Shown: positions 5,097-14,988, counted from the stretch's first letter. The stretch is DNA of 64,000 bases from Vicinamibacterales bacterium (GCA_965243615.1 CBDEVO010000003.1:5594471-5658470), one strand, 5' to 3'. The notes: a model not told the origin generated them from the sequence alone. Translations and numbers: made by a program.

Positions 5097-6383
5097 TTGA
5101 CCACGACGACGCTCGACCGTTGCGATTTGGAGGCCCTGCGTGCCCGCGAAAGGGAGTTGACCGCCGCTCACGACGAATTCCGCTCCGCCCGCCTCGCCCT
5201 GGACCTGACCCGCGGCAAGCCGAGCCCGGCCCAGCTCGCACTGTCCGACGACCTCGACGCGGAGAGCGGGCCGTTCACGGCCGCCGACGGGACCGACGTC
5301 CGGAACTACGGCGGACTCGACGGCCTGCCGGAGGCCCGGCAACTGGGCGCGGAATGGCTCGGCGTGCGTCCCGACGAGGTGATTGCCGGCGGCAACAGCA
5401 GCCTCACCCTGATGTACCTGTACCTGCTGAACGCGTGGCTTCACGGTCCGGCCGGGCCGGACGGCGCATGGAGAAGGTCCGGAACGGCGCGGTTTCTCTG
5501 TCCGGTGCCCGGGTACGACCGCCACTTCGCGATTCTCGAGGATCTCGGCATCGAGATGGTCAACGTGCCGATGCGGGACGACGGCCCCGACATGGATCAG
5601 GTCGAGGCGTGCGTGCGCTCCGACGCCTCCATCCGGGGCATCTGGTGCGTGCCGAAGTACTCCAATCCCGGCGGGCAGGTCTATTCGGAGGCCACCGTGG
5701 ACCGGCTCGCCAGACTCGCCGCCGTCGCCGGCCCGCACTTCCGCATCCTGTGCGACAACGCCTATGCCGTCCACGATCTCGACGACGAGCCGCCGCCGCT
5801 GGCCAACGTCATGGACGCGTGCCGGCGCCACGGCACGGAAGACAGCCTGGTGCTCTTCGCGTCGACTTCCAAGGTCACGCGCGCCGGCGCCGGCATCAGC
5901 TTCATGGGCGGTTCACCGGCCACCCTCGGCTGGTTTCGGCGTCGGATGCAGGTGTTGACCATCGGACCGGACAAGGTCAACCAGTTGCGGCACGTCCGGT
6001 TCCTGCGCGACATGGATCACGTGCGCGTGCACATGCGGAAGCACGCTTCGATCCTCCGCCCCAAGTTCGGGCTGGTGTTCCGACGGCTGTCGGAGGCATT
6101 GGACGGAACCGGGACCGGTTCCTGGACGAGGCCGCGCGGAGGCTATTTTCTTTCGTTCGACGCCCGTCCCGGCCTCGCCGGCGAGATCGTTCGCCTCGCG
6201 GCCCGCGCCGGCGTGAAGCTCACCCCGGCCGGAGCCACTTTTCCCTATGGGCGGGATCCCGACGATTCCAACATTCGGCTCGCGCCGACGTTTCCGGAAC
6301 TCGCCGATCTCGATCAGGCGATGCGGGTATTCGTGGCGTGCGTCGAGCTCGCCTCGGTGAGACAGGCACTGGATAGCCGGTAG
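5097..6383 (+). CDS. PLP-dependent aminotransferase (class I/II fold)
   Basis: 428-aa ORF. It has a TSKVTRAGAGISF segment with a PLP-lysine-like context and conserved NPGG and NAY motifs. Overall it resembles aspartate/aromatic-type aminotransferases. Confidence 0.8.
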   Translation: MTTTTLDRCDLEALRARERELTAAHDEFRSARLALDLTRGKPSPAQLALSDDLDAESGPFTAADGTDVRNYGGLDGLPEARQLGAEWLGVRPDEVIAGGNSSLTLMYLYLLNAWLHGPAGPDGAWRRSGTARFLCPVPGYDRHFAILEDLGIEMVNVPMRDDGPDMDQVEACVRSDASIRGIWCVPKYSNPGGQVYSEATVDRLARLAAVAGPHFRILCDNAYAVHDLDDEPPPLANVMDACRRHGTEDSLVLFASTSKVTRAGAGISFMGGSPATLGWFRRRMQVLTIGPDKVNQLRHVRFLRDMDHVRVHMRKHASILRPKFGLVFRRLSEALDGTGTGSWTRPRGGYFLSFDARPGLAGEIVRLAARAGVKLTPAGATFPYGRDPDDSNIRLAPTFPELADLDQAMRVFVACVELASVRQALDSR

Positions 6384-6449
6384 CACGCGTGCGCCGCTCG
6401 CGCGGAGCCATCAGGCCCAGCGGCGGAATCGGAGCGGCAGGGAACCCCC

Positions 6450-6472
6450 GGGGGACGCCTCCACCGTCCCCC
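6450..6472. terminator. GC hairpin between convergent genes (possible bidirectional terminator, no U-run)
   Basis: GGGGGACG-N7-CGTCCCCC is a perfect 8-bp stem. It lies between the aminotransferase stop (6383) and the stop of the small minus-strand gene (6503). Confidence 0.25.
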
Positions 6473-6502
6473 CTGGAAGGCGTTCCTGAAGCCAGCCGAG
6501 AA

Positions 6503-6814
6503 CTACTTCCCGGCCTTTTTTCTCCGGGCCGCCCAATACGCGGTCATCCGCTCGGACACCGCCTTCTTTTCTTCGGCCGTCATCTGACGGCGCTTTCTCC
6601 TCGGCTTGGCCGCGGGCGCGGCATCCGCGGCCGGGGCCGGGGCCGGGGCGGGAGCCGCCGGCTTCCTCGGCGAAGAGGACCGCCGGGCTCTCCGCCTGGG
6701 TTGCGGGGCAGAGTCTCCCAGCATCTTCTCGACATCGCTCAACGCCTTGATCTCGGCCTGCAGGCGCTCGATCTGACTCTGCCGCTCGGCAATTGCGTCG
6801 GTTATGACACTCAT
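6503..6814 (-). CDS. small basic coiled-coil protein (possible nucleoid-associated/DNA-binding), 103 aa
   Basis: This is the C-terminal part of track ORF 6503..7621, starting at ATG 6814. The sequence is MSVITDAIAERQSQIERLQAEIKAL (coiled coil), then an AP-rich linker, then the basic tail KPRRKRRQMTAEEKKAVSERMTAYWAARRKKAGK. The upstream part of the long ORF runs through the tRNA and is not coding. Confidence 0.55.
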   Translation of the reverse strand: MSVITDAIAERQSQIERLQAEIKALSDVEKMLGDSAPQPRRRARRSSSPRKPAAPAPAPAPAADAAPAAKPRRKRRQMTAEEKKAVSERMTAYWAARRKKAGK

Positions 6815-6968
6815 GAGGCTAGAGAATAGTGGCACACAACACGGATTGTCAAACGCATTTGCGGTCGGCGGCGAACGGGACACGGGCGGACAGCCCCGTG
6901 CCGCGAGAACGGAACGGGTGGGAAACCGCCGTGTGTGTGGTAACTTAGTCTCGTGCCGCGGCGGCCGT

Positions 6969-7045
6969 CGGGGCGTGGCGCAGCCTGGTAGCGCGCCTGC
7001 TTTGGGAGCAGGAGGCCCCCGGTTCGAACCCGGGCGCCCCGACCA
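6969..7045 (+). tRNA. tRNA-Pro: tRNA-Pro (anticodon UGG), CCA encoded
   Basis: Manual cloverleaf: acceptor CGGGGCG/CGCCCCG, D stem GCGC/GCGC, anticodon stem CCTGC/GCAGG with loop TTTGGGA (TGG at positions 34-36, G37), T stem CCCGG/CCGGG with loop TTCGAAC, discriminator A, then CCA. Total 77 nt. Confidence 0.92.
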
Positions 7046-7088
7046 GTTTTCGACCGCCGCACTCCGCTCGGCGCCCAACCAACCCGCC

Positions 7089-7119
7089 GGAGTCCGCGCC
7101 GCTGCACCGCGCAGACCCC
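7089..7119. repeat. degenerate copy of the GGAGTCYGCGCC-N7-GGCGCRGACTCC palindromic repeat family
   Basis: The sequence is GGAGTCCGCGCC GCTGCAC CGCGCAGACCCC. The left arm is identical to the family consensus and the right arm matches 9 of 12. It lies immediately 3' of the last ilv-operon gene. Confidence 0.4.
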
Positions 7120-7614
7120 CTACCCGAAGAACGCCGCGCCGTGCCACGAATCGGAGGCCGGCAGCTCCCATCGGCCGGCCCGGACCTGCTCGACCTTCGT
7201 CAGCGTATTGTCGAAGACCACCGTCCGCGGACCCACGTCGCCGCTTTCGGCCAGATCGGCGAACCGCTCCCGGGACACTCTGGCGATGCCGGCCTCGTCG
7301 CGATAGAGCACCGGCGCATGGTTCACGAGCTCGACGCCCAGGTCGGCCTGCAGCACCTTCATGCGTCGCACGAGGGCGTCGACGGAGCAGCCGGACGCGC
7401 CGGCCGCCCGCTCGTCGACGGCCACGAAGATGAACTGCTCGTACCGCACGTCGCGGGCCGCCCTCAGGGGAACGTCGTGGGCGGTCCACTGGTCGATGAA
7501 GGCGTCCACCTCGCGGGTCACGCGGGTGCGCTCGCCGGCGACCAACGGACGCTCGGCCGCGAAGATCCACAGGCGCGCTTCCGGCGGCAGCTCGTCGAAG
7601 GTGACTCGTGGCAT
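7120..7614 (-). CDS. conserved hypothetical protein (last gene of ilv operon)
   Basis: 164-aa ORF with normal amino-acid composition (W, F, Y, D, E all present), lying 10 nt downstream of ilvC on the same strand. I could not assign a family with confidence. Confidence 0.6.
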   Translation of the reverse strand: MPRVTFDELPPEARLWIFAAERPLVAGERTRVTREVDAFIDQWTAHDVPLRAARDVRYEQFIFVAVDERAAGASGCSVDALVRRMKVLQADLGVELVNHAPVLYRDEAGIARVSRERFADLAESGDVGPRTVVFDNTLTKVEQVRAGRWELPASDSWHGAAFFG

Positions 7615-7624
7615 GTGGCAACTC

Positions 7625-8638
7625 CTAGACTGGCTCCTTCACCGTGACCGCGTCGAGGAACGGCATCATCCCCCTGAGCTCGGCCCCTACCTTCTCGATC
7701 CGGTGCTCCTGCTCGGCCCGCCGCTGCGCCATGAACCAGGGCCGGCCGGCCTTGTCCTCGGCGATCCACTTGTCGGCGTAGACCCCGTCCTGGATGTCCT
7801 TCAGGATGCCCCGCATCGCCTCGCGGGTGGCGTCGGTCACGACCCGCGGGCCGCCGGTGTAGTCGCCGTGCTCGGCGGTGTCGCTGACCGAGTAGCGCAT
7901 GTAGTTGAGGCCGCCCCGGTAGATGAGGTCCACGATGAGCTTCAGCTCGTGCATGCACTCGAAGTATGCCACCTCCGGCTGGTAGCCGGCCTCCACCAGC
8001 GTCTCGAAGCTCGCCTTGATGAGCGCGCTGACCCCTCCGCAGAGGACCGTCTGCTCGCCGAACAGGTCGGTCTCGGTCTCCTCCGCGAACGTCGTCTCGA
8101 TGACGCCGGCCCTCGTGAGACCGAGGCCCTTCGCATAGGACAGGGCCAGGGGCTGCGCGCTCCCCGTCGCATCCTGCTCGACCGCGACCAGGGCCGGCGT
8201 GCCCCCGCCCTCGAGGAAGACCTCGCGTACGCGGTGACCCGGGGCCTTGGGCGCGATCAGCGTGACGTCGACGTCGGACGGCGGGGTGATGGTCTTGAAC
8301 CGGATGTTGAAGCCGTGGGCGAACATCAGCATGTCGCCCGGCGCGAGATTGGAAGCGATGGACTGATCATAGATGGCCCGCTGCTTCGTATCGGGCGCGA
8401 GGATCATGACCACGTCGGCCCACGCCGCCGCCTCGGCGCCGCTCTTCACGGTCAGCCCGTCCGCTTCCGCGCGGGCGCGGGAGCGGCTGCCCTCCGCCAG
8501 CGCCACCTGCACCGGAACCCCGCTGTCCTTCAGGTTCAGCGCATGCGCATGCCCCTGGGAGCCGTAGCCGAAGACGGCGACCTTCCTGCCCTGAATGAGA
8601 GAGAGATCCGCCGAGTCGTCGTAGTGAATCGTTGCCAT
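7625..8638 (-). CDS. ilvC: ketol-acid reductoisomerase
   Basis: 337 aa. Motifs: [40 protein letters not shown] (NADP Rossmann motif), then LMFAHGFNI and [11 protein letters not shown]. Confidence 0.96.
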
Positions 8639-8704
8639 TCTGATTTCCGCCTCGTCAGTCGGGATGTTCCCGAGGGCTTCGGGATGGGGCTTCGGCTTGC
8701 GCCG

Positions 8705-9253
8705 TTACACGGAATAGGAAACCTGATCGCCGGCCTCGACCTCGGCGGGGGCGTCGACGGGCTCCGTCGCCACGCTCTGCTGCCCTCGCGCCATGGCCAC
8801 GCGCCCGGTCCGCACTATCTCGAGCACGCCGTAGGGCTGCAGGACACCCAGCAGCCCGTCGATCTTGTCCTCGGTGCCGGTCGCCTCGACAATCAGGGAG
8901 TCGGGCGCCACGTCGACGACGCGGCCTCGAAACGTATCCACGATCTGCATCACCTGCGTGCGGGTCTCCTGGTTCGCCTCGACCCTGATGAGGGTGAGGT
9001 CCCGGATGACGGCCGCGTCGCCGGTCAGGTCCGTCACCCGCAGAACGTTCACGAGCTTGTACAGGTTCGCTTCGAGCCGCCTCGCGCCGTTGTCGTCGGT
9101 ATCGACGACGATCGTCATGCGGGACACGCCGGCGACCTCGGTGCGGCCCACCGTCAGCGACTCGATGTTGAACGCGCGGCGGCGAAACAGCGACGCCACC
9201 CGGTTCAGGACTCCCGGCTTGTCCTCGACGTGCACGACAAAGGTACGTCGCAT
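8705..9253 (-). CDS. ilvN: acetolactate synthase small (regulatory) subunit
   Basis: 182 aa from ATG 9253. MRRTFVVHVEDKPGVLNRVASLFRRRAFNIESLTVG is an ACT domain. The longer track ORF 8705..9802 overlaps ilvB out of frame. Confidence 0.9.
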   Translation of the reverse strand: MRRTFVVHVEDKPGVLNRVASLFRRRAFNIESLTVGRTEVAGVSRMTIVVDTDDNGARRLEANLYKLVNVLRVTDLTGDAAVIRDLTLIRVEANQETRTQVMQIVDTFRGRVVDVAPDSLIVEATGTEDKIDGLLGVLQPYGVLEIVRTGRVAMARGQQSVATEPVDAPAEVEAGDQVSYSV

Positions 9254-9267
9254 GGTCCTGTCAGATC

Positions 9268-10986
9268 CTAGTCGTCCGCCGTCTCGACGATGGGACTGGG
9301 GCTCGGCCGGCGGATCATCTTGTGCAGGTCGGCGCCGGCCGGCACCATCGGATAGACGGTGTCCTCCTGCTCGACCCGGAAGTCGATGACCACCGCACCG
9401 GGCTCGGCCCGCGCCATCGCCACCGTCGGCTCGACCTCCTGCCGGCGCGAGACCGTCGCGCTGCGGAGGCCGAAGGCCTCGCCCAGCTTCGCGAAGTCGG
9501 GGCTGAGCAGCGGCGTGGCCGCGTAGCGCCGCTCGTAGAAGAACTCCTGCCACTGCCGCACCATGCCCAGATAGCCGTTGTTGATGATGGCCACGTTGAC
9601 CTTCACCTTCTCCTGCGCGATGGTGGCCAGCTCGCACATCGTCATCTGGAAGCCGCCGTCGCCCACGATCGCCCACACCTCGGCCTCGGGCCGCGCGAGC
9701 TTGGCGCCGATCGCGGCGGGCAGGGCGAACCCCATAGTCCCGAGGCCCCCCGACGTGATGAGCGACCGCGGCTCCTGGTGGTGGTAGTACTGCGCCTCCC
9801 ACATCTGGTGCTGGCCGACGTCGGTCACGACCACCGCCTTGCCGTCGGTCATGCGCCAGATGTCGTTGATGACGTGCGCGGCGTACAGGTGACCGCTGTC
9901 GGGCAGGTTCTGCACGTCACGGACGGCCGAGTCGCCCTTCATCTCCGCGATCGAGTCGAGCCACGCGCGGCGGTCGCCGTCCTCGATCCGCGGCAGCAGC
10001 TCCCGCAGCACGCCCGACAGGTCGCCGGCCAGGGTGACGTCGACGAGGACGTTCTTGTTGAATTCGGCCGGGTCGATGTCGACGTGGATCTTCCTCGCGT
10101 TCGGCGCGTACGTCCTGACGTTGCCGGTGACGCGGTCGTCGAACCGCATGCCGAAGGCGAGCAGGAGGTCGGCCTCCTGGATGGCCTGGTTCACCCACGC
10201 CTCCCCGTGCATCCCCATCATGCCCAGGTTCAGGGGGTGCAGGGCCGGGAACGACCCGATGCCGAGCAGGGTCATTGCGACCGGGATGTCGGCCCGCTCG
10301 GCGAACTCGCGCACCAGGTCCATGGCGCCCGACAACATCACGCCGTGCCCGGCGAAGATGACCGGCCGCTTGGCGCTGTTGATCAGGTCCACCGCCTGCC
10401 GGCGCTCGGCGTCCGACGCGCGAAGCTCGGGCCGGTAGCCGGGCAGGCGCACGGGGCTGCCGTCCCAGACGAACTCGGCCGAGGACTGCTGGGCGTCCTT
10501 GGTGATGTCCACCAGCACCGGTCCGGGGCGGCCGGAGCGCGCGACGTAGAACGCCTCGTGGATGGTCGGCGCCACCTCGGACACGTTCGACACCAGGTAG
10601 TTGTGCTTCGTGATGGGCAGGGTGACGCCGGTGACGTCGGTCTCCTGAAAGGCGTCCGACCCGATGAGCCGGCTGCCCACCTGACCCGTGATGCAGACGA
10701 TGGGCGAGGAATCGAGCATCGCGGTGGCGATGCCCGTGACCATGTTCGTGGCGCCGGGCCCCGACGTGGCCACCGCCACGCCGACCTCCCCGCTCGCCCG
10801 CGCGTAGCCGTCGGCCATGTGGGTCGCCCCCTGCTCGTGCCGCACCAGGACATGGCGGACGGGGTACTCCAGCATGGCGTCGTAGGCGGGCAGAATCGCG
10901 CCGCCAGGATAGCCGAACACCGTGGTCACCCCCTCGCGCACGAGGGATTCCCACAGGATCTGCGCGCCGGTTCTCATGTTCCCCAT
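9268..10986 (-). CDS. ilvB: acetolactate synthase large subunit (biosynthetic, ThDP-dependent)
   Basis: 572 aa with motifs GYPGGAILP, GPGATN and the ThDP motif GDGGFQMT...NNGYLGMVRQWQ. Confidence 0.96.
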   Translation of the reverse strand: MGNMRTGAQILWESLVREGVTTVFGYPGGAILPAYDAMLEYPVRHVLVRHEQGATHMADGYARASGEVGVAVATSGPGATNMVTGIATAMLDSSPIVCITGQVGSRLIGSDAFQETDVTGVTLPITKHNYLVSNVSEVAPTIHEAFYVARSGRPGPVLVDITKDAQQSSAEFVWDGSPVRLPGYRPELRASDAERRQAVDLINSAKRPVIFAGHGVMLSGAMDLVREFAERADIPVAMTLLGIGSFPALHPLNLGMMGMHGEAWVNQAIQEADLLLAFGMRFDDRVTGNVRTYAPNARKIHVDIDPAEFNKNVLVDVTLAGDLSGVLRELLPRIEDGDRRAWLDSIAEMKGDSAVRDVQNLPDSGHLYAAHVINDIWRMTDGKAVVVTDVGQHQMWEAQYYHHQEPRSLITSGGLGTMGFALPAAIGAKLARPEAEVWAIVGDGGFQMTMCELATIAQEKVKVNVAIINNGYLGMVRQWQEFFYERRYAATPLLSPDFAKLGEAFGLRSATVSRRQEVEPTVAMARAEPGAVVIDFRVEQEDTVYPMVPAGADLHKMIRRPSPSPIVETADD

Positions 10987-11026
10987 TGACCCGTACCCGT
11001 CGGCGGCGGAAGCGGCCTCCGCGCCC

Positions 11027-12709
11027 TCACGCCGTCGTCACCGCACCCTCGGCCGCCGACCCCACGAGACGGCAGTACTTCGCCATCACGCCGGTCGCGA
11101 AGCGCGGCGCCGGGGCCTCCCAGCCGCGCATGCGCTCGGCGATCTCCGCCTCGTCGACCTCTACCCGCAGCTCCCGCGCCTGCAGGTCGAAGACGATGAT
11201 ATCGCCGTCGCGCACCGCCGCGATCGGCCCTCCCCGCGCCGCCTCCGGCGCCACGTGCCCCGCCATGAGGCCGCGGGTCGCGCCCGAGAACCGGCCGTCG
11301 GTCAGCAACGCCACCGAGTCGCCGAGGCCGGCCCCGACGATCGCCGCGGTGACCGCCAGCATCTCGCGCATGCCGGGACCGCCGCGCGGCCCCTCGTAGC
11401 GGATCACGACGACGTCCCCCGGCCGCAGCGCGCCCTTCTCGACCGCCTCGAAGCAGGCCTCCTCGCTGTCGAACACCCGCGCCGGGCCGCGGTGCCGCCG
11501 GGTGCCGTAGCCGCCGGCCACCTTCACCACGCACCCGTCCGGGGCCAGGTTGCCCTTCAGGATGATGAGCCCGCCTGTCGGAGTTATCGGCTCGGACACC
11601 GGCCGCACCACTTCCTGCCCCGGGGCCTCGGTCGCCGCCCGCGCCTCCTCTCCGATGGTGCGGCCGGTGACGGTGACCTCGTCGGACCGCAGCACCCCTG
11701 CCTCCTCGAGCCGCCGCGCCACCAGGCGGCTGCCGCCGGCCCGGTACAGGTCGGTCGCGACGAAGCGGCCGCCAGGCTTCAGATCGGCCAGCAACGGCGT
11801 CACGCCGCTGATGCGGTCGAAGTCGTCGATGGAGATCTCGACCCCCGCCTCGCGGGCGATGGCCAGCAGGTGCAGCACCGCGTTGGTCGACCCTCCCGTG
11901 GCGGCCACCGACGCGATGCCGTTCTCGAGCGCGGCCCGGGTCATGATCTGCCGCGGGCGCCGGTCCGACTCGACCAGGTCCATGATGAGCCGCCCCGACT
12001 CGCGGGCCACCACGTCCTTCTCGTCTTCCATCGCCGGCACCGCGTTGTGGCTCATCGGCGAGATGCCGATCAGCTCGCACACCGTCGCCATGGTGTTGGC
12101 GGTGAACTGGCCGCCGCACGCGCCGGGGCCGGGGCACGCCGCGTCCTCGAGCGCCTTCAACTGCGCGTCGCTCATCGTGCCCGCCGCGTGCGCCCCCACC
12201 GCCTCGAAGACGTCCTGGATGGTGACGTCGCGGTCCTCCCAGCGCCCCGGCGCGATGGAGCCGCCGTAGAGCACGAGGCCCGGGATGTCGAGCCGCGCCA
12301 CCGCCATCACCCCCCCGGGGATGGTCTTGTCGCAGCCCACCAGGACCACGAGCCCGTCGAAGAGGTTGCCGCGGGCGACGAGCTCGATGGAGTCGGCGAT
12401 CACCTCGCGGCTCACCAGGGAGGCGCGCATGCCGTCGCTGCCCATGGTGATGCCGTCGGAGATGGACACCGTGTTGAACTCCATCGGCGTGCCCCCGGCG
12501 GCGCGGATCCCGTCCTTGATCCGCTCCCCGAGCCGCCGCAGATGGAAGTTGCAGGGCCCGATCTCGATCCAGGTGTTGGCGACCCCGATGATCGGCCGGC
12601 CCAGCGCCTCGTCGTCGAACCCGACCGCCTTCAGCATCGATCGCGCCGGAGCGCGGGAGGGGCCGTCCGTGATCGCGCCGCTGCGGGTCTTGCCTGGCCT
12701 GGCCGTCAT
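11027..12709 (-). CDS. ilvD: dihydroxy-acid dehydratase
   Basis: Start taken at ATG 12709 ([31 protein letters not shown]...), giving about 560 aa. Motifs include CDKTIPG and TDGRFSG. The upstream 49 codons of the track ORF cover the leader/terminator region. Confidence 0.95.
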
Positions 12710-12727
12710 GTGCGTGAGCCTTCCGAC

Positions 12728-12764
12728 AAAAAAAGGGCCATCACCCGACCGTGGATGATGGCCC
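12728..12764 (-). terminator. intrinsic terminator of ilv attenuator (12-bp GC stem + U7) in the ilvD 5' leader
   Basis: Minus strand reads GGGCCATCATCC-ACGGTC-GGGTGATGGCCC-TTTTTTT, ending 18 nt before the ilvD ATG. Confidence 0.7.
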
Positions 12765-12791
12765 TCGAATCTGCTGTGTTCGTCGAGTACA

Positions 12792-12878
12792 TCATCCACT
12801 GGCCGCCGGCGCAATGATGACGCCGGCGCCGTGAACGCCGACCACGACAGAGCCACGGGACGCGCGAACCATGGACAT
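12792..12878 (-). CDS. candidate ilv leader peptide, 28 aa ([28 protein letters not shown])
   Basis: Hand-translated and verified codon by codon. It has 6 Val and 2 Ile in 28 residues. Its stop codon is embedded in the antiterminator arm GTGGATGATG. It is too short to appear in the ORF track. Confidence 0.5.
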
Positions 12879-12902
12879 TCGGGACTTCGGAAACGGGGCT
12901 CT

Positions 12903-12932
12903 ATTCTAGCGCGGTCGCGGAGGCGGGCTCAA
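12903..12932 (-). promoter_or_regulatory. candidate sigma70-type promoter of the ilv leader (TTGAGC - 18 nt - TAGAAT)
   Basis: AT-rich hexamers stand out in GC-rich DNA. The -10 TAGAAT lies 24 nt upstream of the leader ATG. Confidence 0.4.
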
Positions 12933-13011
12933 GGGCCGGTCGACCACCGTCCGTCATCGCCGTCCGGGGACTCGCCGGCCTCGCCGGCGCGGAAGCCCGC
13001 CTCGTCCCGAA

Positions 13012-13455
13012 TCACCGCTCCGGCAATGGCTCGCCCTCGGGGACGAAGCGGAGCGCGACGCCGTTGTTGCAGTACCGCTTTCCGGTGGGCCGCGGCCCGT
13101 CCGGAAAGACGTGCCCCTGGTGCCCCCCGCAGCGGGCGCAGTGATACTCGGTCCGCGGCAGGATCATCTTGAAATCGCGCTTCGTGCCGAGGCTGCCCTC
13201 GATCGGCGCGAAGAAGCTCGGCCATCCGGTGCCGCTCTCGTACTTCGCCGCCGACTCGAAGAGCGGCTGATAGCAGGCGGCGCAAACGAACGTCCCGGCG
13301 CGCTTCTCCCGGTTCAGCGGGCTCGACCCGGGCGGCTCGGTCGCCTCCCGGAACAGGACCGCGAACGACGCCGCCGGGAGCAGGGCGCGCCACTCCTCGG
13401 GCGTCTTCTTCTCGGTGGGGTTCGTCTCGGTCGACGCTGGGCTCGTCTCGATCAT
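13012..13455 (-). CDS. msrB: peptide-methionine (R)-S-oxide reductase
   Basis: Motifs: CAACYQPLF...GWPSF...HCARCGGHQGHVFPDGP...RYCNNGVAL. Start taken at ATG 13455, which is preceded by AGGAG 6 nt upstream. The track start at 13482 is a GTG without an RBS. Confidence 0.9.
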   Translation of the reverse strand: MIETSPASTETNPTEKKTPEEWRALLPAASFAVLFREATEPPGSSPLNREKRAGTFVCAACYQPLFESAAKYESGTGWPSFFAPIEGSLGTKRDFKMILPRTEYHCARCGGHQGHVFPDGPRPTGKRYCNNGVALRFVPEGEPLPER

Positions 13456-13955
13456 GACCGTCTCCTCTCGGGAGAATACCACCGCCGCCCGGGCGCCTCG
13501 ACGGCACGCCCCTCAACCGCCGCCCGCAGCGTCGATTGCCGCGGGGCGGCCCGGGGGGGGCCGCCGGGCTCGCGTCCCCACCCCGCGACGTGAGATCCCG
13601 GCGCGAGTCGGCGAGCGGCGACAGGCCGCCGCACGGCGTCGCCGGGAAACGGGCGGATTCCGGGTCAACCGGGGTTGACGACGGCAAGAAGACGCGATTG
13701 CCCCCGAGTCACGCGACATCGCTTGCGTCCGACCCGACCGGCGGGCCGGCGATCCCGACGCCGACGGTTGCCCGCCACCCAGGCCGCGCGCCGGCGGCCG
13801 ACCGGGCGCGAATCCGCCGACCTCCCGGTTCTTGCAGCGTTTCGCCCGCCAACTCCACGTGGCACGACCCTTGTAGTCATTTCGTGCACGGGCGGCCGAG
13901 CCGATTCGGCGCCCGGAAGCGGCATGACGCCGCGCCGAATCCAAGGAGGTTGACC

Positions 13956-14060
13956 ATGAAGACACGCAAGTCAGCGGCGGCGGCGACGCTGACGACGCGG
14001 CAGCTCGCCGCCGGAACCCGAGGTTCGAAGTACGCAACAATTGTGTTACAGATCACATAG
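13956..14060 (+). CDS. small ORF, 34 aa (MKTRKSAAAATLTTRQLAAGTRGSKYATIVLQIT), candidate peptide
   Basis: A near-perfect RBS AAGGAGG lies 6 nt upstream of the ATG. A 10-bp perfect hairpin (13903..13941) sits just 5' of the RBS. The ORF ends 14 nt before the next small gene. There is no homology evidence. Confidence 0.35.
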   Translation: MKTRKSAAAATLTTRQLAAGTRGSKYATIVLQIT

Positions 14061-14074
14061 CTCAGGAGAGAATC

Positions 14075-14362
14075 ATGCAGAAACGAACGCTGCTCGCCAT
14101 CTCGACGTTGACCGCCCTCCTGCTCTCGGTCGGAACCCTGCAGCCGGCCCCGATGGAGACAGGGGCGGAGCTCGCGCTGCACGGCCATCTGGTCGCACCG
14201 CAGGCACCGCCGTCGGTGGAGGAGCCGGTCGCCCCCCGGTGGGCATTCGCGTTGGGAATGAATCGCGAGGAGGCCCTGACATTCACCGTTCTCGGTGCCG
14301 TTACCTGCTCCCCGTTCATTTGGATCGGCTCCATTGCGTGCGGGGTCACCGGCGGGTTGTGA
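14075..14362 (+). CDS. small secreted/hydrophobic peptide precursor, 95 aa
   Basis: RBS AGGAGA lies upstream. The N-terminal signal-like segment is MQKRTLLAISTLTALLLSVGTLQPAP. The C-terminal Gly/Ala/Cys-rich hydrophobic segment is LTFTVLGAVTCSPFIWIGSIACGVTGGL (2 Cys). It sits in a locally lower-GC context. Confidence 0.55.
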   Translation: MQKRTLLAISTLTALLLSVGTLQPAPMETGAELALHGHLVAPQAPPSVEEPVAPRWAFALGMNREEALTFTVLGAVTCSPFIWIGSIACGVTGGL

Positions 14363-14415
14363 TCGTCGCGGGGAGACGCTGAGCGAGACGAGGACCGACG
14401 CGCACGGAGGCTGAA

Positions 14416-14988
14416 GTGGAGAGACTCGACAGATGGTCCCGCTCATTGGCGATTCTGCTAGTCGTCAACGTGCTGCTCTTCAGCCTCACCGTCTGCGCCG
14501 GTTGGCTCAGCGCCGAGCACCTGGGAGAACAGCTCCACGTCCGCCGGTCTGCTGCAGTCACCGGCGACCGCATCCACTCGGACGCCGCCTACATTCTGCG
14601 CGGCAACCTGCGGGTCGCGGCCGGACTGCTGGCGGGCGGGTGCACGCTGGGGCTGTTCACCCTCGTCGGACTGCTGTACAACGCGTTCCTGCTGGGCTAC
14701 GGCCTGTCCGCCCTGACCCGGAACGCCGCCGAGGTCTTGCCGTTCCTCGCCAGCTACGTACCCCTCGAGTTCCTCGCGTTCATCCTCGTCGCCACCGCCA
14801 CGCAGCATCTCTCTCTGGGGGTGGTCCGGTGCCTGGCGACGGGAGAGTCCTTACCACTCAAGGCCGGCGCCGTCAGTCTCGGGGGCGGGGGTGTGCTGCT
14901 CGTGGTCGCCGCCGTCGTCGAAGCGAGCGTGATGCCCGCCATCGCCGCAATCTCGGGGCAGACTCCGCCGCCAGGAGGCACGCCATGA
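14416..14988 (+). CDS. SpoIIM/DUF95-like integral membrane protein
   Basis: 190 aa with a GTG start after GGAGG. It has multiple TM segments. The pattern N-x...LLYNAFLLGYGL...YVPLEFLAFILVA resembles the NG...PHGxxELxA signature of the SpoIIM family, though the match is weak. Confidence 0.55.
   Translation: MERLDRWSRSLAILLVVNVLLFSLTVCAGWLSAEHLGEQLHVRRSAAVTGDRIHSDAAYILRGNLRVAAGLLAGGCTLGLFTLVGLLYNAFLLGYGLSALTRNAAEVLPFLASYVPLEFLAFILVATATQHLSLGVVRCLATGESLPLKAGAVSLGGGGVLLVVAAVVEASVMPAIAAISGQTPPPGGTP

Follow-up and report, generated by a model that had tools for sequence, protein, structure and literature searches.

In a 6.75-Mb MAG of the Vicinamibacterales (Acidobacteriota), a 300-nt intergenic gap separates ilvD, the head of an ilvD-ilvBNC operon, from the gene upstream. 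The question raised by this gap is whether it holds a leader that attenuates transcription into the operon and, if so, which amino acids that leader senses. Leader-peptide attenuation is a textbook mechanism in Proteobacteria and is documented in Actinobacteria and in a few Firmicutes. A preliminary description of the DNA had read a Val/Ile-sensing attenuator upstream of ilvD, in a context that it took to be of acidobacterial type, and the source does belong to that phylum. The window is the whole stretch of 64,000 nucleotides that was analysed (G000:C3:5594471-5658470). Positions are counted from its first letter, and (-) marks features of the minus strand, on which the operon and its leader lie.

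Gene order around the leader

The first structural gene is ilvD, coding for dihydroxy-acid dehydratase (11027-12709 (-); NCBIfam TIGR00110, E = 5.7e-206), which is preceded by the Shine-Dalgarno sequence GGAAGG at 12724-12719 (-). It is followed by ilvB (9268-10986 (-)), ilvN (8705-9253 (-)) and ilvC (7625-8638 (-)), each identified by an NCBIfam match and with its start and stop codons checked. These matches return the order ilvD-ilvB-ilvN-ilvC, with ilvD first, that had been given earlier. All four genes are on one strand, with gaps of 40, 14, and 66 nt between ilvD/ilvB, ilvB/ilvN, and ilvN/ilvC, respectively. The gene upstream of the leader, on the same strand as ilvD, is msrB (SelR domain, 13012-13482 (-)), and the attenuator occupies the gap between msrB and ilvD.

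At the other end of the operon, a 164-aa ORF (MPRVTFDELPPEARLWIFAAERPL..., 7120-7614 (-)) begins 10 nt past the ilvC stop. Neither Pfam nor NCBIfam gave a match for it, and it may be a fifth gene of the ilvD operon. A promoter-like site was also observed at 6823-6852 (-), consisting of TTGACA, 18 nt, and TATTCT, just upstream of the gene for a small basic-tail protein (6503-6814).

Promoter-like site and Val/Ile-rich leader ORF

The leader begins with a promoter-like site at 12932-12903 (-), made up of the -35 hexamer TTGAGC (12932-12927), an 18-nt spacer and the -10 hexamer TAGAAT (12908-12903). Shuffles predict 0.3 promoter-like sites in 8.5 kb, and two were found, the only other one within 6000-14500 being the site at 6823-6852 mentioned above. 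The hexamers TTGAG[ACG] and TA[GC]AAT are kept at a spacing of 17-18 nt in 22/23 family-level loci, with a spacer that varies in sequence. The single exception is L023, where the -35 hexamer is TTGCCA. The promoter-like site of the preliminary description is confirmed, and transcription is predicted to start near 12896, some 18 nt 5' of the leader ORF.

The leader ORF (12878-12792 (-)) was found as it had been described, with 28 codons from the ATG at 12878 to a TGA stop at 12794-12792. The encoded peptide has 6 Val and 2 Ile, including the runs VVV-G-V and V-I-I, and its branched-chain codons are for Val and Ile only, with no Leu codons. Two regulatory clusters were distinguished. The first is Val11-Val12-Val13-Gly14-Val15 (GTC GTG GTC GGC GTT) at 12848-12834 (-). 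The second, Val20-Ile21-Ile22 (GTC ATC ATT), is found at 12821-12813 (-) and corresponds to segment 1 of the earlier reading (GTCATCATT), as well as to the loop of the hairpin P1 discussed below.

In the 21 genus members, the frame is open in every case with an identical stop, the sole indel being of 3 nt. One refinement concerns the start codon. A second in-frame ATG at 12872, giving 26 codons, is present in 20/21 genus members vs 14/21 for the ATG at 12878, and on the aligned sequences the ATG at 12872 is the better conserved start. Val is retained at codons 11-13 in 17-20 of the 21 and at codon 15 in all of them, and codons 20-22 read V/A, I/L/M/V, and I/V, respectively. In 4-5 of the 21 members, the Val run has decayed (e.g., SPAAGV in L022). 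V/I runs are found in ilvD-linked leaders throughout the order.

At the leader start there is no clear Shine-Dalgarno sequence; a conserved CGAAG-like stretch is found 8-12 nt upstream instead. Substitutions in the leader within the genus have no 3-nt periodicity (0.155, 0.164, and 0.143 by codon position), and periodicity therefore gives no independent support for translation of the leader. From the amino acid composition of the leader family, presented below, we infer that the ORF of the ilvD leader is translated.

Terminator, antiterminator and P1 hairpin

Segment 2 (GTGGATGATG, 12799-12790 (-)) is the 5' strand of the antiterminator and, as stated in the preliminary description, contains the TGA stop of the leader (12794-12792). 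Its perfect 10-bp complement is segment 3 (CATCATCCAC, 12760-12751 (-)), for which segment 4 is the alternative partner. The pairing of segments 3 and 4 makes the terminator, whose stem GGGCCATCATCC / loop ACGGTC / GGGTGATGGCCC spans 12764-12735 (-), with 12 bp including one G-U. In its extended form (GA-GGGCCATCATCC / ACGGTC / GGGTGATGGCCC-TT + T7, 12766-12728 (-)), the terminator scan counts 14 pairs. Between the end of the T7 run (12734-12728) and the ilvD ATG (12709) there are 18 nt. Both the 10-bp 2:3 helix and the terminator agree with those first proposed, the scan giving 14 bp where 12 had been read.

The computed energies are -26.2 kcal/mol for the terminator, -21.4 kcal/mol for the antiterminator stem-loop and -23.8 kcal/mol for the extended P1. 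The 191-nt leader as a whole folds at -91.5 kcal/mol vs -71.6 +/- 4.5 kcal/mol for 200 dinucleotide shuffles (z = -4.4), all of which are weaker. RNAalifold, applied to 26 sequences, gave two consensus hairpins, namely the terminator and, upstream of it, P1. The latter has a 7-bp core, CCGGCGU / GCGCCGG, at 12826-12806 (-), and its extended form spans 12833-12797.

In the 26 relatives, terminator pairing holds in 100% of the cells, and the P1 helices are 80.8-89.5% paired, with both sides changed at 4 pairs. The antiterminator 2:3 helix is paired in 96.2% of the cells and has compensatory changes. Its covariation score was reached by 0/500 shuffles, and all slid registers were far worse. Examples of compensatory changes in the helices are GCGG/CCGC, CCGG/CCGG, and GGGTGA/TCACCC. 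The cmsearch alignment A3 was left out of the pair counts because of its reverse-strand matches to the palindromic terminator.

The pairing of segments 1 and 2 (CATCAT/ATGATG), put forward earlier as a further possibility, did not hold up as well. It is weakly conserved, with 86.5% of the cells paired and the central pair broken in 9/26 sequences, and it was dropped as a part of the mechanism; the conserved structure is P1. With only 3 nt shared between it and segment 2, P1 is unlikely to be an anti-antiterminator of the trp type and is probably a pause or timing hairpin for RNA polymerase. A hairpin placed just before segment 2, as P1 is, is also found in the hom leader described below.

Conservation and distribution of the leader

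The ilvD loci of 40 relatives were compared. All 21 of the other genus members sampled have the arrangement upstream of ilvD, as do another genus of the family and members of three further families. The leader stays with ilvD even at loci with another gene on its upstream side. An alignment of the ilvD upstream regions of relatives had been suggested as a check in the preliminary description; it shows the peptide frame and the helices to be conserved (21/21 in the genus) and the helices to covary.

A covariance model named R1, which comprises P1 and the terminator over 124 positions, matched 156/301 sampled genomes and 77/120 genera of the order. Among the family genomes listed, the matches were 30/30. 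In a phylum-wide sample, R1 was found in 27/401 genomes, and only 9 of these 27 are outside the order. An Rfam scan of 12000-13500 (cmscan, E <= 10) returned no leader, T-box or riboswitch family, and the covariance models Leu_leader, Thr_leader, His_leader, Trp_leader, and T-box had no match there. Only chance-level, unrelated matches were obtained, the best overlapping one scoring 15-16.5 bits vs gathering scores of 35-40.

Pattern matches in Streptomyces, Actinoplanes, Alphaproteobacteria and others mostly have no T-tail and were treated as chance palindromes. Two pattern matches with a T-tail and with leaders of acidobacterial type were found on Gemmatimonadaceae and Udaeobacter MAG contigs, which may be mis-binned. 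In addition, identical R1 matches were observed near both ends of a one-contig genome (G231:C1:33300-33423 and 6346650-6346773). Rather than a true duplication, they are probably the result of overlapping ends in the assembly of a circular chromosome.

Ribosome position and the proposed switch

When the full-length leader was folded at equilibrium with ribosome masks, the terminator was favoured at every position. The switch must hence be kinetic, as it is in every attenuator, and for this reason a transcript cut just before segment 4 was folded instead, by partition function, with the ribosome-covered nucleotides masked for each A-site position. In this model, the antiterminator forms with a probability of 0.91 when no ribosome is present. 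Placing the A site at Val11-13 gives at least 0.85, or at least 0.95 if the ribosome is given a longer reach, and placing it at Val20, Ile21 or Ile22 gives 0.97 or more. At codons 25-29, including the stop, the probability is 0.00. The modelled probability also falls at codons 17-19, at which the 3' arm of P1 is released and becomes a competing partner. Translation to the end of the leader is thus predicted to block the antiterminator, and a ribosome stalled at either Val/Ile cluster to permit it. The same contrast between a permissive stall and a blocking stop was seen in 59/71 family representatives folded with masks.

Because the overlap between P1 and segment 2 is so short, untranslated RNA is predicted to read through. 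Such a default-ON state in the absence of translation, as predicted by the folding model, would be a departure from the E. coli trp leader. A 1:2 anti-antiterminator is dispensable for amino-acid sensing.

We consider it very probable that the ilvD-ilvBNC leader is a ribosome-mediated transcription attenuator that senses how much charged Val- and Ile-tRNA is available. Transcription would begin about 18 nt before the leader ORF of 26-28 codons. With Val and Ile plentiful, the ribosome would reach the TGA inside segment 2 (GUGGAUGAUG) and cover that segment, segment 3 would then pair with segment 4 in a hairpin of 12-14 bp followed by U7, and RNA polymerase would stop 18 nt short of ilvD. With Val or Ile scarce, the ribosome would stall at Val11-13/Val15 or at Val20-Ile21-Ile22, and either site would leave segment 2 free to pair with segment 3 once the latter emerges. 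The terminator could then not form, and the operon would be transcribed. P1, which lies between the codon clusters, probably pauses the polymerase and would keep translation and transcription coupled. In vivo, the attenuator would be expected to respond to the Val/Ile supply. Conservation, compensatory changes and the pathway-matched composition of the leaders, to which we now turn, all support the Val/Ile attenuation originally read at this locus.

The same cassette before other operons

Many genomes contain 2-5 matches to R1. A family set was assembled from 60 further R1 matches from the order and 120 pattern matches in public genomes, with gene identities assigned by Pfam. The same cassette precedes ilvD, pheA-ilvD, ilvB, ilvE, ilvA, and leuA, as well as genes for a LysR-type regulator, hom, aspartokinase, and a HAD-like hydrolase; some copies are found in Terriglobia. 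The core of the cassette, GGATGATGTAG, offers stops in two frames (GGA TGA; ATG ATG TAG), both of which are used.

In the genome from which the window is taken, a cassette-specific scan found exactly two copies, before ilvD and before hom, and a stricter general attenuator scan gave only 4 matches. The second copy (L062 1501-1615 (-), equivalent to G000:C3:4051567-4051681) has a Thr/Met-rich leader, MTENMTAPVAMTTMAPAPRGHSG, which ends at its stop codon. It consists of GTGGGTGATG / CATCATCCAC / GGATGGTGG + T9 directly upstream of homoserine dehydrogenase, with the promoter TTGACG / TAGAAT.

Leader composition was compared over clusters at 60% identity (n = 106), leaving out the last four residues, whose identity the RNA constrains, and taking at most 24 of those before them. 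The ORF taken was the longest one ending in or near segment 2, whatever its composition, and the test is therefore not circular. In ilvD-linked leaders, the fraction of V+I is 0.30, with 0.09 for T+M and 0.05 for L. The corresponding values are 0.10, 0.28, and 0.04 for hom-linked leaders, and 0.19, 0.04, and 0.26 for leuA/LysR-linked leaders. The contrasts in V+I (ilvD vs hom), in T+M (hom vs ilvD), and in L (leuA/LysR vs ilvD) each gave a permutation p <= 5e-5. In pheA-first operons the excess of Phe is modest (0.04 vs 0.02, p = 0.012), an example being SFFVTVVVTVTG. Leader composition thus tracks the downstream pathway, which ties the ORF to amino-acid sensing. Among the lines of evidence that the short ORFs are translated sensors, and not chance reading frames, this pathway-matched composition is the strongest.

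The helices of the family are diverse, with 58 distinct 2:3 helix types among 167 distinct elements. Examples include GTGG...CCAC, GCGG...CCGC, CCGG...CCGG, CGGG...CCCG, CTGG...CCAG, GCGAATGATG/CATCATTCGC, and GGGCGGGTGAT/ATCACCCGCTC. Segment 3 scores a mean of 9.28 with its own upstream region vs 8.48 +/- 0.06 when cross-paired (maximum 8.56 in 20 permutations).

On balance, we favour the view that these elements form a modular cassette of conserved sequence, largely confined to Acidobacteriota, that was copied before about nine operons (ilvD, pheA-ilvD, ilvB, ilvE, ilvA, leuA, LysR-type regulator, hom, and aspartokinase) and whose leader was re-coded each time for the amino acid concerned. 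Such a cassette would be default-ON and would have no anti-antiterminator, its layout being P1, GGRUGAUG(UAG) with the two-frame stops, CCAUCAYCC, GGRUGAUGG, and the U-run.

Several individual groups of copies were observed besides. In other genera of the order, pheA (prephenate dehydratase) is located between the leader and ilvD at seven loci (L030/L238, L216, L220, L221, L224, L226, and L229), five of which are from genus g10. The leaders of these loci read SFFVTVVVTVTG..., with Phe codons ahead of a Val/Thr run. Very Leu-rich leaders (ILALVLGVLLLSLGLLLGS...) are found upstream of a LysR-type regulator at L116, L160, L180, and L097, all from Vicinamibacterales. In an arrangement of this kind, attenuation would act on a transcription factor and not on an enzyme gene. 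In public Acidobacteriota contigs (L094, L148, L173, and L183), the cassette is located before a HAD-like hydrolase (Pfam HAD_2/Hydrolase); the leaders of these copies end in ...W(I/V)DLAPPGSFG followed by the stop and have no obvious amino-acid bias.

Other candidate leaders in the genome

Two further candidates were observed in the same genome. Near G000:C3 position 910730 (-), a His-rich leader (MMLRHGHHTAQPTVHRGGAADLHVR, followed by its stop) is accompanied by an antiterminator, GGCGGGGC/GCCCCGCC, and by a terminator with T9. Its promoter is TTGACA / TAGGGT, and it is located upstream of a hisI-like gene (MDFSKLDGLIPAVIQ...). Near G000:C3 position 3952556 (+), a candidate aromatic leader, rich in Trp/Tyr/Phe, was found in a TTG-started frame ending in ...ARAWWGYWFTRPGEVRLPA and a stop, with the alternative pairing CCGGAGAGG/CCTCTCCGG and a terminator with T7. 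The gene downstream of it, which begins MNRARLCATVTAG, may be aroD-like. The terminator sequences of the His-rich and Trp/Tyr/Phe-rich candidates differ from that of the ilv/hom cassette, and a single scaffold is therefore indicated only for the branched-chain, threonine, and Phe-linked set.

Comparison with known attenuators

The enterobacterial leaders of ilvGMEDA (ilvL) and ilvBN (ivbL) likewise combine a short, branched-chain-rich leader ORF with an exclusive choice between antiterminator and terminator, a U-run, and control by the position of the ribosome. The preliminary description had equated the logic of the ilvD leader with that of the enterobacterial ilv leaders. This stands for the ribosome-set choice between antiterminator and terminator, but not for superattenuation of the trp/ilv style, which is not predicted with a P1 that overlaps segment 2 by 3 nt. 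The acidobacterial leader differs from ilvL and ivbL in other respects as well: it has Val and Ile codons only, with no Leu, its stop codon is placed in the middle of segment 2, it precedes an operon that starts with ilvD and continues with ilvBNC, it belongs to the phylum Acidobacteriota, and no Rfam family resembles it in sequence or by covariance model.

In Corynebacterium glutamicum, ilvBNC is preceded by an Ile/Val/Leu leader peptide and three hairpins, and the function of the terminator was confirmed by mutation (PMC11857589). The combination of a leader peptide and three hairpins upstream of the operon is shared, and the logic matches. The third hairpin of C. glutamicum is described as an anti-antiterminator, whereas the acidobacterial P1 overlaps the antiterminator strand by 3 nt. 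Moreover, the first gene is ilvB in C. glutamicum and ilvD here, and no sequence similarity was detected between the two leaders.

Candidate ilvB leaders of Streptomyces and Mycobacterium, in which short ORFs with Ile/Val/Leu runs overlap poly-U terminator hairpins (PMC1262725), resemble the acidobacterial leader in having a short ORF of branched-chain codons and a terminator. Mutating the candidate regulatory codons of the S. coelicolor ilvB leader was without effect (as reported in PMC1262725), an indication that the prediction of an attenuator can mislead when taken alone. Outside the Proteobacteria, Staphylococcus aureus is likewise reported to have a leader-peptide attenuator of a branched-chain operon, ilv-leu (PMC5794164). 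That leader is Leu-rich and not Val/Ile-rich, acts together with CodY, and is unrelated in sequence.

In a survey from 2010, almost none of the attenuators predicted in Acidobacteria had a function assigned (PMC2965389), and our literature searches found no paper on leader-peptide attenuation in Acidobacteriota or Vicinamibacterales. The evidence supports the ilvD leader as a conserved Val/Ile leader-peptide attenuator, of a kind that is well known, in a phylum that is under-studied.

Alternative explanations

Copies of the cassette before ilvD, hom, and leuA differ sharply, and fittingly, in leader composition, which is hard to explain without codon-specific sensing. For this reason we regard as improbable the explanation that survives best beside the Val/Ile attenuator, namely that the switch is real and depends on translation but is not specific for amino acids, so that it reports general translation or coupling and the Val/Ile codons are incidental. 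Several observations are in keeping with such a sensor: any failure of translation would derepress the operon if untranslated RNA reads through as predicted, some genus members have lost part of the Val run, some HAD-type hydrolase copies have leaders that lack an obvious bias, and changes to the codons of the S. coelicolor ilvB leader reportedly had no effect (PMC1262725).

Less probable again is the binding of a trans-acting factor (an RNA-binding protein, an uncharged tRNA or a metabolite) to a cassette whose short ORF is untranslated. The motifs GGRUGAUG / CCAUCAYCC / GGRUGAUGG are conserved in sequence more than pairing requires, as this explanation would have it; part of that conservation follows if segment 2 has to hold a stop codon, since segment 3 must then carry its complement and segment 4 a copy. 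The weak Shine-Dalgarno sequence of the leader and the lack of codon periodicity fit an untranslated ORF. They are set against an ORF that ends in segment 2 in nearly all copies, with a codon content matched to the pathway, and against the lack of any T-box or riboswitch family match in the region at E <= 10.

Finally, the hairpin and U7 are found downstream of msrB on the same strand, but we rejected as barely credible their reading as the msrB terminator, or as a constitutive partial terminator without a regulatory alternative structure, since the hairpin is separated from the msrB stop by ~280 nt that include a conserved promoter, keeps its linkage to ilvD where the upstream gene differs, and has an antiterminator that covaries with it.

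Implications

The Val/Ile attenuator upstream of ilvD, together with its paralogues, provides a testable account of branched-chain and threonine-family regulation in soil Acidobacteriota, which are abundant and mostly uncultured. The covariance model could be used to annotate hundreds of 5' leaders that are at present unannotated. The most interesting extension is that the cassette is common to many operons. One RNA scaffold carrying different codon "sensors" constitutes a natural series in which the copying and re-targeting of attenuators can be studied. The modular cassette, if true, would be a T-box-like family for ribosome-sensed attenuation, with one scaffold and many specificities.
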